Both the position numbers and the translations under genes were made by a program. From the NCBI GenBank assembly GCA_041658985.1, contig JBAZZC010000005.1, forward strand, positions 1 to 54,595: a DNA stretch of 54,595 bases, in the 5' to 3' direction. The stretch's first letter is position 1, and every line of letters starts with the position of its first letter. The stretch comes from Minisyncoccota bacterium (lineage in GTDB: Bacteria > Patescibacteriota > Minisyncoccia > Phycocordibacterales > DATDWN01). Shown here one piece after another: positions 35,941-38,287 of this stretch. The notes under the pieces are model-generated. The model was given only the letters and a program-made list of their open reading frames with translations, was not told the origin of the DNA and searched no databases.

Positions 35941-37133
35941 AAAATAAATTAATTAAAATGAGAGCGCAAATATTGTATAAGCTAAAAAAATTCTTGGTTA
36001 CTTTTAATTATCCAGAATTTAGATCTCTACCAAATAAACCAAGAAGTGATGAAGAGCATTTGAAGGCCGCAATGGAATGGCTCTGTCTTGCTCAAGATGT
36101 TACGGGTTGTGGTGGAGTAAGCACTTCTTATGACTTAGCTAGTAAAAAATGGGGTAACCCATATCGAGAAACTACAGGATATATTATTGAAACATTCGTT
36201 GACTATTACAAACTAACTGGAGATAAAAATTATTTAGAAAGAGCTGAAAAGATGGCTAACTGGGAAATAGACGTCATGTCCACTGACGGCGCCGTCGGGG
36301 AAATTCATAAAGACGGAATTCTCTATAACAAAGTTTTTAATACAGGTCAGGTTATTTTAGGCTTTTACAAACTTTTTTTAGAAACTAAAGAAGAACGGTA
36401 TCTAAAAACCATGCAAAAATCAGCCGATTGGCTAATTTTAAACCAAAATGAAAGTGGGGCTTGGGAGAAATTTTCAACCAAAGGAGCTAAAACTGTAGAT
36501 TCAAGAGTAGCATGGTCACTTCTAGAAGTTTACGTTATAACAAAAGACGAGCGCTACCGAATCTGCGCAGAAAAGCATTTAGAGTGGGTACTTAAACAAC
36601 AAAAAGAAAATTTTTGGTTTGATAAGACCAGTTTCACTAGCAGCAGGAATGCCCCTTGGACACACATGATCGCTTATACAATCAGTGGTATCTTAGAAAG
36701 CTACAAACTTGGACAAAAAAAAGACAATCTCTATAAATCATTTTATGGTGCTGCAGATAAAATGCTTGAATGTTTTTACAAAACAAAAACAAGTAGTGGC
36801 TTTTTGCCATCTACATTTGACGAAGATTGGGAGTCAGAAGACGATTATTCTTGCTTAACTGGTGATGTTCAACTGGCAGCTATTTGGATGGAAATATGGA
36901 AGATGACAAACGAAAAAAGATTTTTGGATGGGGCGTTTAAGATAATAAAACAAGTAAAATCAACTCAAATACTGGACACTAAAGAAGAAATCCGTGGAGG
37001 TATATTGGGTTCTTATCCATATTACGGAGAATATAGTCATTTCCTTTTAATCAATTGGGCTACCAAGTTTTTTGCTGATGCATTGATTTTGAAAATAAAG
37101 GTTGGAAATGAATCCCGTACGAAGTCTATGTAA
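35937..37133 (+). CDS. Alpha/alpha-toroid (terpene cyclase / prenyltransferase-like fold) protein, function unknown
   Basis: Repeated helical-hairpin pattern: AMEWLCLAQDVTGCGG, KNYLERAEKMANWEI, ERYLKTMQKSADWLILNQNESGAW, ERYRICAEKHLEWVLKQQ. The last 7 codons (ESRTKSM) are encoded by the left arm of element M1. Confidence 0.4.
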   Translation: MKNKLIKMRAQILYKLKKFLVTFNYPEFRSLPNKPRSDEEHLKAAMEWLCLAQDVTGCGGVSTSYDLASKKWGNPYRETTGYIIETFVDYYKLTGDKNYLERAEKMANWEIDVMSTDGAVGEIHKDGILYNKVFNTGQVILGFYKLFLETKEERYLKTMQKSADWLILNQNESGAWEKFSTKGAKTVDSRVAWSLLEVYVITKDERYRICAEKHLEWVLKQQKENFWFDKTSFTSSRNAPWTHMIAYTISGILESYKLGQKKDNLYKSFYGAADKMLECFYKTKTSSGFLPSTFDEDWESEDDYSCLTGDVQLAAIWMEIWKMTNEKRFLDGAFKIIKQVKSTQILDTKEEIRGGILGSYPYYGEYSHFLLINWATKFFADALILKIKVGNESRTKSM

Positions 37134-37215
37134 TATGTTATTATGAGTGTTTATAATTTAAATCAGAATATAATCAAAGCGAAGGTGAAAAAATACCCTT
37201 TACTTCGTACGGGAT
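37112..37215 (+). mobile_element. ORF-less element of about 104 bp, CCCGTACGAA inverted-repeat family (copy M1)
   Basis: atcccgtacgaag (37112-37124) pairs with cttcgtacgggat (37203-37215). ATGAA flanks are at 37108-37112 and 37214-37218. The wecB ATG (37214) lies in the right end. Confidence 0.7.
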
Positions 37216-38287
37216 GAAAATTATTCACATCGTCGGAGCAAGACCGAATTTTATGAAAATGGCACCGGTCTGGCGAGCTCTAAAAAAATACAAAATCAAA
37301 CAACTTATTGTTCATACAGGACAGCATTACAGTACAAATATGTCTGACGTATTTTTTAAAGAACTTGGAATAAAAACCCCCGATGTAAATTTAAAAGTAG
37401 GTTCTGGCACACAAGCAAAACAGGTAGCTAACATAATGACAAAACTTGAAAAAGTGCTTACGAATGAAAAACCCGATATGACTTTGGTTTATGGTGATGT
37501 TAATTCAACCTTAGCGGCCTCTCTTGTCTGTGCAAAGATGGGTCTCAAAATAGCCCATGTTGAATCAGGGCTTAGGTCTGGAGACCTCACTATGCCTGAG
37601 GAAATTAATCGTATGGTAACAGATAGATTGTCATCTCTTCTTTTTACTCCATCGATAGGGGCTGGTCTTAACTTAATCCACGAAGGAGTAGACAAGAAAA
37701 AAATACACTTTGTCGGCAATGTTATGATTGATACACTGGTCACCTATTTAGATAAAATCAAGAAAAAAAGTAAAATTAATCTGCGCTTTAAAAAATTCGC
37801 AGTAGTCACTTTGCACCGACCATCTAATGTTGATAATTTAAGACAGTTAGAAAAAATTGTTATTTCCCTGAACACAATTGCAAAAAAAATCCCTCTTTTC
37901 TTCCCTATCCATCCTCGTACCAAAAAACAACTCAAAAAATTAAAGAACATCTCTCTTAATTCCGACAAAATAATCCTTCTAGAACCATTAGGTTACACGG
38001 AGTTCCTAAATCTGGTATATCATTCAGATTTTATATTAACTGACTCGGGAGGCATTCAAGAAGAAAGCACTTATTTGGGGATACCCTGCTTAACTTTGAG
38101 GGGAAACACCGAGCGACCAGTAACAGTGAGCTTGGGTACAAACACATTGGTCGGCAATGATTTCAATCTTCTCAATAAAAAAATAGACGAAATTCTCTCA
38201 AAAAAATATAAAAAGGGCACAATACCGGAAAAATGGGATGGTAAAGCTAGTGCAAGAATTGCAGAAATAATCATGAAACAGAAATGA
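37214..38287 (+). CDS. wecB: UDP-N-acetylglucosamine 2-epimerase (non-hydrolysing)
   Basis: Signatures are IVGARPNFMKMAPV, HTGQHYSTNMSDVFFKELGI, VYGDVNSTLA, HVESGLRSGDLTMPEEINR and DSGGIQEE. Confidence 0.9.
   Translation: MKIIHIVGARPNFMKMAPVWRALKKYKIKQLIVHTGQHYSTNMSDVFFKELGIKTPDVNLKVGSGTQAKQVANIMTKLEKVLTNEKPDMTLVYGDVNSTLAASLVCAKMGLKIAHVESGLRSGDLTMPEEINRMVTDRLSSLLFTPSIGAGLNLIHEGVDKKKIHFVGNVMIDTLVTYLDKIKKKSKINLRFKKFAVVTLHRPSNVDNLRQLEKIVISLNTIAKKIPLFFPIHPRTKKQLKKLKNISLNSDKIILLEPLGYTEFLNLVYHSDFILTDSGGIQEESTYLGIPCLTLRGNTERPVTVSLGTNTLVGNDFNLLNKKIDEILSKKYKKGTIPEKWDGKASARIAEIIMKQK

Follow-up and report, generated by a model that had tools for sequence, protein, structure and literature searches.

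A non-coding inverted-repeat element at the wecB start codon of a Minisyncoccota bacterium and its relatives across Patescibacteria

The Correia/NEMIS elements of Neisseria are units of about 100-150 bp without an open reading frame (ORF). They have terminal inverted repeats and a short target duplication and occur in many copies at gene boundaries, where they are co-transcribed as hairpins able to affect neighbouring genes. REPINs are abundant, extragenic, inverted doublets of a short palindromic motif, and their movement in trans by a single-copy domesticated nuclease, the RAYT, is thought likely. In phage T4, split ribosome-binding sites of the gene 38/25 type have a hairpin between the Shine-Dalgarno (SD) sequence and the AUG, which may keep initiation possible. 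Here we describe M1, a 102-bp ORF-less palindromic element at positions 37113-37214 (+) of a 54,595-nucleotide stretch from a Minisyncoccota bacterium (GenBank assembly GCA_041658985.1, contig JBAZZC010000005.1; this whole stretch is termed the window). M1 is located between a gene for an (alpha/alpha)6-toroid protein and wecB. Comparison with an orthologous locus identifies it, on sequence evidence, as an insertion of a mobile element at the wecB start codon with duplication of a TGAA target.

M1 and the toroid gene/wecB junction

The junction is composed as follows.

35937-37133 (+): upstream (alpha/alpha)6-toroid gene, 398 aa, with GH127, GH88 and SQHop alpha-alpha-toroid Pfam matches
37109-37112 (+): left TGAA direct repeat; with A37108 it reads ATGAA and is a remnant duplicate of the sequence around the wecB start
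37110-37133 (+): ESRTKSM tail and stop of the toroid gene, encoded jointly by the flanking repeat, the left arm and 9 interior nt
37113-37124 (+): left terminal inverted repeat TCCCGTACGAAG, a perfect 12 bp
37177-37205 (+): hairpin B, AAGCGAAGG / CCTTTACTT with loop TGAAAAAATAC, overlapping the inner 3 nt of the right repeat
37203-37214 (+): right terminal inverted repeat CTTCGTACGGGA; the terminal A doubles as the first base of the wecB ATG
37214-38287 (+): wecB, UDP-GlcNAc 2-epimerase, 357 aa, Epimerase_2, E = 6.7e-104
37215-37218 (+): right TGAA direct repeat

Close relatives of the toroid protein (80-86% identity) are encoded on three contigs (L001, L002 and L003), which were compared with the window. 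At the orthologous locus of L001, which is 84% identical, the toroid gene and wecB are joined by a plain ATGA overlap (CCTATGAAAATT; read as ...AAAAACCTATGAAAATTATCC) with neither element nor spacer, and the wecB N-terminus, MKIIHVVGARPNF, is the same. Window and L001 are collinear on both sides, and the window has 106 additional bases between two copies of ATGAA. L001 provided the single orthologous wecB junction available. In L002 (1993-3333) and L003 (2129-3466), compared with window positions 37214-39618, wecB is absent and the toroid gene is followed directly by a GT1 gene. The gene content of the polysaccharide cluster thus varies independently of M1, wecB being present in L001 and missing from L002 and L003. 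The absence of wecB from these two contigs had prompted the idea that M1 marks an attC-like cassette boundary; it was dropped because L001 has wecB without M1.

An initial annotation, made from the sequence alone, had proposed that the toroid gene reads through the left arm for seven codons before a stop inside the element. The ORF reads exactly so (GAA TCC CGT ACG AAG TCT ATG TAA = E S R T K S M stop). From the conserved ATAAA(G/C) to the ATGA the distance is 7 nt in the window versus 14 nt in L001. This puts the TGA within the left ATGAA out of frame, so that the toroid ORF runs on to a TAA 18 nt inside M1. Orthologues sharing this tail and the same spacer would have pointed to conserved intergenic sequence. 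The three orthologues end in ...LILKINIKKNL, ...KINITKQK and ...KISIKKDENS, i.e. ESRTKSM occurs in none of them, and L001 has no spacer. Donation of a C-terminus is real at this locus, yet it is the exception in the family: of 38 genes upstream of such elements, 35 have their stop in the last 12 nt ahead of the arm, and 3, with the M1 case among them, read into it.

The 11-nt arms had been placed correctly, CCCGTACGAAG at 37114-37124 and CTTCGTACGGG at 37203-37213, with no ORF between them; the ORF list of the window contains none of at least 40 aa inside M1. The wecB start does adjoin the right arm, with the refinement that the A of its ATG is the last base of the right repeat. Complementarity of the arms reaches 14 bp (ATCCCGTACGAAGT / ACTTCGTACGGGAT). 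A hairpin-energy prediction for the doublet, as had been suggested, gave a stable fold with a 14-bp terminal stem, both as RNA (-27.3 kcal/mol, z = -3.85) and as single-stranded DNA (-16.7 kcal/mol, z = -5.0). A consensus scan of the sense strand found neither promoter nor terminator in M1, and the Rfam 15 covariance models had no match at the gathering threshold or at E <= 1. Allowing at most one mismatch, the 11-mer arm occurs 8 times in the 54.6-kb window versus 0.16 expected, and none of 100 shuffles reached 8. The matches form four inverted pairs, at 25.7 kb (M2), 35.7 kb (C1), 37.1 kb (M1) and 39.6 kb (C2), and one solo site. The latter, CCCGTACGAAA at 33673-33683 (-) with one mismatch, is inside an intact 587-aa ORF (32697-34460) and is a chance match or a relic.

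Relatives of M1 in the window and across Patescibacteria

The three other pairs delimit the following units.

25694-25794 (-): M2, 101 bp, same family as M1 in opposite orientation; abuts the ATG of rmlC (25149-25694, -) and is flanked by TGA
35660-35937 (+): C1, 278-bp GIY-YIG cassette; TGAA flanks 35656-59 and 35938-41; ORF 35671/35680-35940
39620-39897 (+): C2, 278-bp GIY-YIG cassette; TGAA flanks 39616-19 and 39898-901; ORF 39631/39640-39900

M1, M2, C1 and C2 have a common layout: TGA(A), then TCCCGTACGAAR ... YTTCGTACGGGA, then TGAA. In all four the last A of the element and the next TG make up the start codon of the following gene, these being the toroid gene, wecB, a methyltransferase/GT2 fusion and, on the minus strand, rmlC. 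The C1 site is empty in L001 (AAAATAATATGAAAAAT) and in L003 (AAAATAGGATGAAAAAT). M2 is 95% identical to a copy which precedes an unrelated gene in a Zambryskiibacteriota MAG (metagenome-assembled genome). In L002 the C1 and C2 junctions (L002:700-826 and L002:3334-3436) are filled by a different repeated intergenic element of about 100 bp, rich in TTTCGTAT/TTCGCAT motifs and ending in ...TTTTCGTATCAT(A)ATG; positions 1-26 of this contig are the 3' end of a GIY-YIG cassette.

M1 had been called a derivative of the GIY-YIG repeat. This was not supported: in alignments of M1 and M2 with C1 and C2 only about 14-25 bp per end are common, which gives no support to a deletion derivative, and alignment with genome-wide copies places both M1 and M2 in a separate conserved family of about 100 bp. 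What M1 and the cassettes do have in common are the terminal repeats, the flanking TGAA, the start-codon target and the orientation rule. The description as a non-autonomous, MITE-like counterpart of the cassettes (MITE, miniature inverted-repeat transposable element) is therefore supported, whereas 'REPIN-like' is an analogy only, as the associated protein is of the GIY-YIG type and not a RAYT and target duplications are present. Structurally, M1 has what defines a MITE: it is small and ORF-less and has terminal inverted repeats, a target-site duplication and dispersed copies with presence/absence polymorphism.

A genome collection was scanned for the two ends at a distance of 65-95 nt. At least 113 genome stretches contained ORF-less doublets bearing the same 12-bp ends, nearly all of them in Patescibacteria MAGs and often several per genome; the hosts were Nomura-, Pacei-, Sacchari-, Yanofsky-, Wildermuth-, Zambryskii- and Buchananbacteria. 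The doublet statistics refer to the matches listed (119-120 doublets). Identical 4-bp flanks were present in 79 of 120 doublets and in 0-3 of shifted controls (TGAA 50, TGGA 21, TGTA 5, each including the reverse complement, others 3). Near-identical copies carried different repeats, e.g. TGAA in L013 and TGGA in L116 at 98.6% interior identity. Therefore, the flank repeat is a true target duplication and not a sequence carried by the element, which rules out an IS200/IS605-like model in which the target is copied in the element. At 101 of 119 doublets a junction ATG began an ORF of 60 codons or more, and in no case did this apply to both ends. In the right flank, position 4 was A in 97 of these 101; thus the target is (A)TGRA. 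Interiors oriented by the downstream gene gave 308 high-scoring segment pairs in plus and 11 in minus orientation, i.e. the orientation relative to that gene is fixed. When two doublets were at least 80% identical in their interiors they mostly preceded unrelated genes (69 of 73 pairs).

The 12-bp end TCCCGTACGAAR is nearly invariant across Patescibacteria classes, and the terminal repeats are invariant in 30 family members. The interiors belong to several unrelated families (types of about 100 bp and about 115 bp and a 110-bp Saccharibacteria type). M1 is 60-70% identical to other members of the ~100-bp family and, judged by its sequence, is a somewhat decayed representative which has lost the internal arm-like motif TTCTTACGGGAAG kept by the others. 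The interior is not the AT-rich filler it had been taken for. In the family alignment A5, hairpin B was paired in 95.9% of the cells with three covarying pairs, a score reached by none of 500 shuffles; in this alignment M1 retains 8 of 9 pairs. A second candidate, hairpin A, formed by the left arm with the internal TTCTTACGGGAAG, was discarded: it is 92% pairable but lacks covariation and may just as well be a site for DNA binding. In many families the gene-distal (left) end is followed on its inner side by a half-site (TTCTTACGGGAAG) or by a mini-palindrome built from the two arm cores (ACCCGTACGGGT and its variants). Examples are L008:2548-2580, L036:3403-3435, L064:6156-6190 and columns 33-45 of A5 for the ~100-bp family. 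The mini-palindrome resembles subterminal binding sites or a fused empty element.

Some matches were at the margins of this distribution. A typical doublet of the 115-bp family is present on a 3.3-kb contig labelled as a Gammaproteobacteria MAG (L046, CAZKQL010000083.1), which is probably a mis-binned Patescibacteria contig. The match in Chitinophaga (L082) is an unrelated palindrome. Both end patterns had 0 matches in IMG/VR, which we had searched for phage carriage.

The coding form of the element was traced in metagenomes by the same ends at a distance of 240-270 nt, which yielded 78 stretches. Matches of 273-281 bp were mostly GIY-YIG cassettes (about 50-60), 48 of them (40 unique) with an intact ORF of exactly 86 codons. 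They have ATGAA flanks and precede many different genes. The ORF is co-directional with the downstream gene, and its stop overlaps the ATG of that gene. In C1 and C2 the ORF starts just inside the left repeat and ends with the TGA of the flanking TGAA, and its last four codons (F-R-T-G) are the right repeat. The GIY-YIG domain (Pfam PF01541, E = 3e-16) has its catalytic motifs (Y, Y, R, H/N, E) invariant in 44 sequences. The median dN/dS over the 40 unique ORFs is 0.12, demonstrating purifying selection. C1 and C2 are not recent copies of one another because their proteins differ at 8% of the residues and dS is 0.17 (dN 0.037). At residue 46 (89-aa reading) both proteins (35671-35940 and 39631-39900) have Leu (RGL), whereas Pro (RGP) is present in at least 90% of the homologues.

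Sequence matches of the protein to known structures were to UPF0213 only (1zg2, E = 4.5e-7), and NCBIfam has no model which matches it. The predicted model (pLDDT 86) most resembles UPF0213 and the nuclease domain of Slx1 (TMq 0.65, rmsd 2.2-2.5 A), with I-TevI at 0.47 and UvrC at 0.42; it consists of a single domain of 86 residues with no separate DNA-binding domain. Patescibacteria have many homologues, with 70-87% identity between lineages. Doublets are found on cassette-bearing contigs, and GIY-YIG genes near doublets are mostly directly adjacent. Tandem and adjacent arrangements of the type ...GTACGGGATGA followed by TCCCGTAC... occur, as would be expected if each insertion recreated its own target. 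Adjacent or tandem cassettes and doublets with a single TGA/TAA in common are located at L080:4463-4839, L071:5462-5738, L004:1559-1924, L050:158-515, L117:4732-5023 and L173:592-881. GIY-YIG genes with variant arms were TCCCGAACTGAAC...GTTCAGTACGGGA in L080 and CCCCGTTAGAG...CTCTAACGGGG in L097; the GIY-YIG gene in L071 is frameshifted. A 265-269-bp class from the metagenome scan was set aside as unrelated to the element. It consists of long foldback palindromes in GC-rich contigs, several hundred bp of perfect palindrome containing the arm motif (L133:340-740, similarly L126, L136, L146, L152, L154, L155, L165, L176, L179, L183, L186 and L189), which are probably assembly foldbacks or hairpin ends.

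Proposed movement of the elements and their tolerance at gene starts

The interpretation which we favor, with a probability of about 0.6, is that M1 is a non-autonomous MITE of a Patescibacteria-wide family, mobilised in trans by the GIY-YIG protein and looped out of the mRNA. M1 inserted into the ATGA stop/start overlap of the toroid gene and wecB, duplicating TGAA. The element ends in ...GGGA, and this last A rebuilds the wecB start codon with the TG of the right TGAA copy; the left copy normally retains a TGA stop for the upstream gene. Insertion would be tolerated because the start codon is rebuilt and, usually, the upstream stop is kept. The 86-residue Slx1/UPF0213-like nuclease may move doublets and cassettes alike, either by recognising or cutting at the common ends or at branched or hairpin DNA formed by them, and host repair would complete the movement. 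The common ends, flanks, target and orientation of doublets and cassettes point to this protein as a possible mover of M1. In the mRNA the 14-bp stem would loop the insert out. A ribosome terminating upstream would melt the left 12-nt arm and free the wecB AUG, so that translational coupling is preserved. The stem energy and the 35 of 38 upstream genes which stop within 12 nt before the arm are consistent with this last step. That the orientation is fixed although the ends are symmetric most likely reflects selection on how the downstream gene is expressed.

Several points weigh against this interpretation. We know of no GIY-YIG protein which acts as a transposase, and this one is an 86-residue catalytic domain without an evident DNA-binding module. 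Symmetric ends combined with a strictly fixed orientation require selection or an asymmetry that has escaped recognition. The 113 genome loci around doublets (8-kb loci, 860 kb) contained no exact-ended cassette. M1 itself may no longer be mobile, having lost the internal TTCTTACGGGAAG. In gene orientation, stem mismatches were 37 G.U versus 27 A.C; with no sense-strand G.U excess the RNA-level part lacks direct support. Finally, tRNA genes bracketed by the same arms hint at a host or RNA-level role of the arm sequence.

These tRNA genes lead to the alternative that survives best, though we consider it rather improbable: the arm is primarily a host RNA signal, a leader-trailer processing site or structural stem recognised by a Patescibacteria-wide factor, M1 is a functional 5'-UTR or junction module, and its spread is secondary. 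Genes for tRNA-Ser, Leu, Cys and Arg are exactly bracketed by the 12-nt arms TCCCGTACAAA...TTTGTACGGGA, which extend the acceptor stem, without target duplication. They are located at the following positions.

L035:2047-2158
L040:916-1027
L043:4408-4505
L067:2621-2731
L101:1283-1394
L103:7647-7755
L112:2841-2952
L037:389-498

Neighbouring tRNAs have analogous leader-trailer stems of different sequence, e.g. CCCCGCACTAAAA/TTTTAGTGCGGGG. This suggests that the arm sequence is also, or was originally, a host RNA signal, or that the ends are able to carry tRNA cargo. The near-invariance of the 12 bp across the classes of the phylum, the fixed orientation relative to the gene and the covarying internal hairpin would suit an RNA signal as well. 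In a variant of this alternative, M1 is cleaved at the stem base or is part of a split ribosome-binding site which brings an SD-like motif beside the AUG. AGGA or GGAG was present 0-1 nt before the left ATG copy in 16 of 71 doublets versus 4 of 396 control gene starts, and in the left flanks of doublets L004-L116 the frequency of G peaked at 0.44 at position -3 before this ATG copy. Such a motif is too near to the left ATG, but its distance to the real AUG, counted across the base of the stem, would be roughly appropriate, which we take as a hint only. The corresponding SD-like region in the left flank of M1 is GGTTGGAA (window 37100-37107). GIY-YIG ORFs have also been found in non-intron insertions of rRNA genes of the candidate phyla radiation (CPR), where they were treated as outside homing (PMC11270868); possibly these are the same cassettes. 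On the other side, target duplications, empty orthologous sites and dispersal before unrelated genes demonstrate mobility at the DNA level. The stem mismatches have no sense-strand G.U bias, the Rfam, promoter and terminator searches were negative, and L001 has the same gene pair, expressed without the element. Moreover, an RNA role of the arm is compatible with a MITE moved by a GIY-YIG protein and does not exclude it.

It is unlikely, in our view, that the ends are recognised by another recombinase or transposase and enclose doublet interiors, tRNA units and GIY-YIG ORFs alike as cargo, the GIY-YIG protein being a passenger such as a repair or defence nuclease. Three different contents between the arms (non-coding, tRNA and GIY-YIG) would be explained in this way, as would the lack of exact-ended cassettes in the 860 kb around the genome doublets. 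Similarly, many doublets are from Saccharibacteria, yet no Saccharibacteria name is among the best 120 GIY-YIG matches. However, the GIY-YIG protein is the only protein found between these ends; its C-terminal FRTG is encoded by the arm itself, and the 86-codon gene fits the element exactly. GIY-YIG genes near doublets are mostly directly adjacent to them, and no transposase gene was found beside the elements when the 10 neighbouring window proteins were scanned. That M1 is an ancestral spacer, precisely deleted in the relatives between the ATGAA repeats, is most improbable: direct repeats can mediate such a deletion and L001 is one junction only, but the same family precedes dozens of unrelated genes with varying 4-bp repeats, and the ESRTKSM tail is absent in all three relatives.

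Significance and comparison with known systems

Full-text literature searches, with the arm sequence among the queries, retrieved no description of these elements. The M1 family unites a 12-bp end conserved across Patescibacteria classes, a 4-bp TGRA duplication and a near-exclusive insertion at start codons in a single orientation. It is quite possible that doublets and cassettes together form a mobile-element system of a new class. The coding form measures just 278 bp, and a GIY-YIG domain is its sole product. If this nuclease moves the elements it would be a new enzymatic class for prokaryotic transposition, and the insertions would be a natural example of translational transparency. A more far-reaching proposal is possible, though doubtful: the cassettes may be autonomous mobile elements smaller than any other protein-coding ones known, moved by an isolated Slx1-like GIY-YIG domain which recognises its own 12-bp palindromic ends (a new transposase/homing-nuclease class) and, like their ORF-less doublets, specialised for start codons with ATG and upstream stop rebuilt, the arm doubling as a host tRNA/mRNA processing stem across Patescibacteria. 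On the practical side, automated gene prediction will place the ends and starts of genes wrongly at junctions of this kind, the ESRTKSM tail being an example. In CPR genomes the repeats also cause assembly breaks and make GIY-YIG genes look as if they had undergone 'horizontal transfer'.

Among described systems, the nearest functional analogues of M1 are the Correia/NEMIS elements, and the nearest protein relatives of the cassettes are UPF0213 and Slx1. The M1 family has the size, the missing ORF, the terminal inverted repeats, the short target duplication and the many copies at gene boundaries in common with Correia/NEMIS, as well as hairpins which would be co-transcribed and could influence adjacent genes. 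In the latter, the ends are 26 bp long versus 12 bp here, the duplication is TA versus TGRA, and the partner is a DDE insertion sequence instead of a 278-bp GIY-YIG cassette. Precise insertion at start codons with regeneration of the ATG, the fixed orientation and Patescibacteria as hosts set the M1 family apart. With REPIN/RAYT it has in common the inverted doublet of a short palindromic motif, the extragenic location and the abundance, and a comparable idea of movement in trans. It differs by a GIY-YIG protein (PF01541) between arms in the window instead of a Y1 HUH RAYT, by the 4-bp target duplication and by the tie to start codons.

The cassettes are reminiscent of GIY-YIG homing genes such as T4 Seg and I-TevI, i.e. 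nuclease genes between host genes which presumably spread via their own DNA breaks. Unlike these, the cassettes encode a catalytic domain only, have inverted repeats and a target duplication and occupy many unrelated sites instead of one cognate allele; the predicted fold is nearer to Slx1/UPF0213 than to I-TevI. The split ribosome-binding sites of T4, with hairpins of about 20 nt which are not mobile, may serve as an analogy to M1 only. The cassette protein is matched best, in sequence and in structure, by UPF0213 (YhbQ/BH0048) and the nuclease domain of Slx1. UPF0213 proteins are products of ordinary single-copy genes of unknown role, for which no mobile context, arms or target duplication have been described. 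Slx1 cuts branched DNA, an activity which would suit a palindromic substrate.

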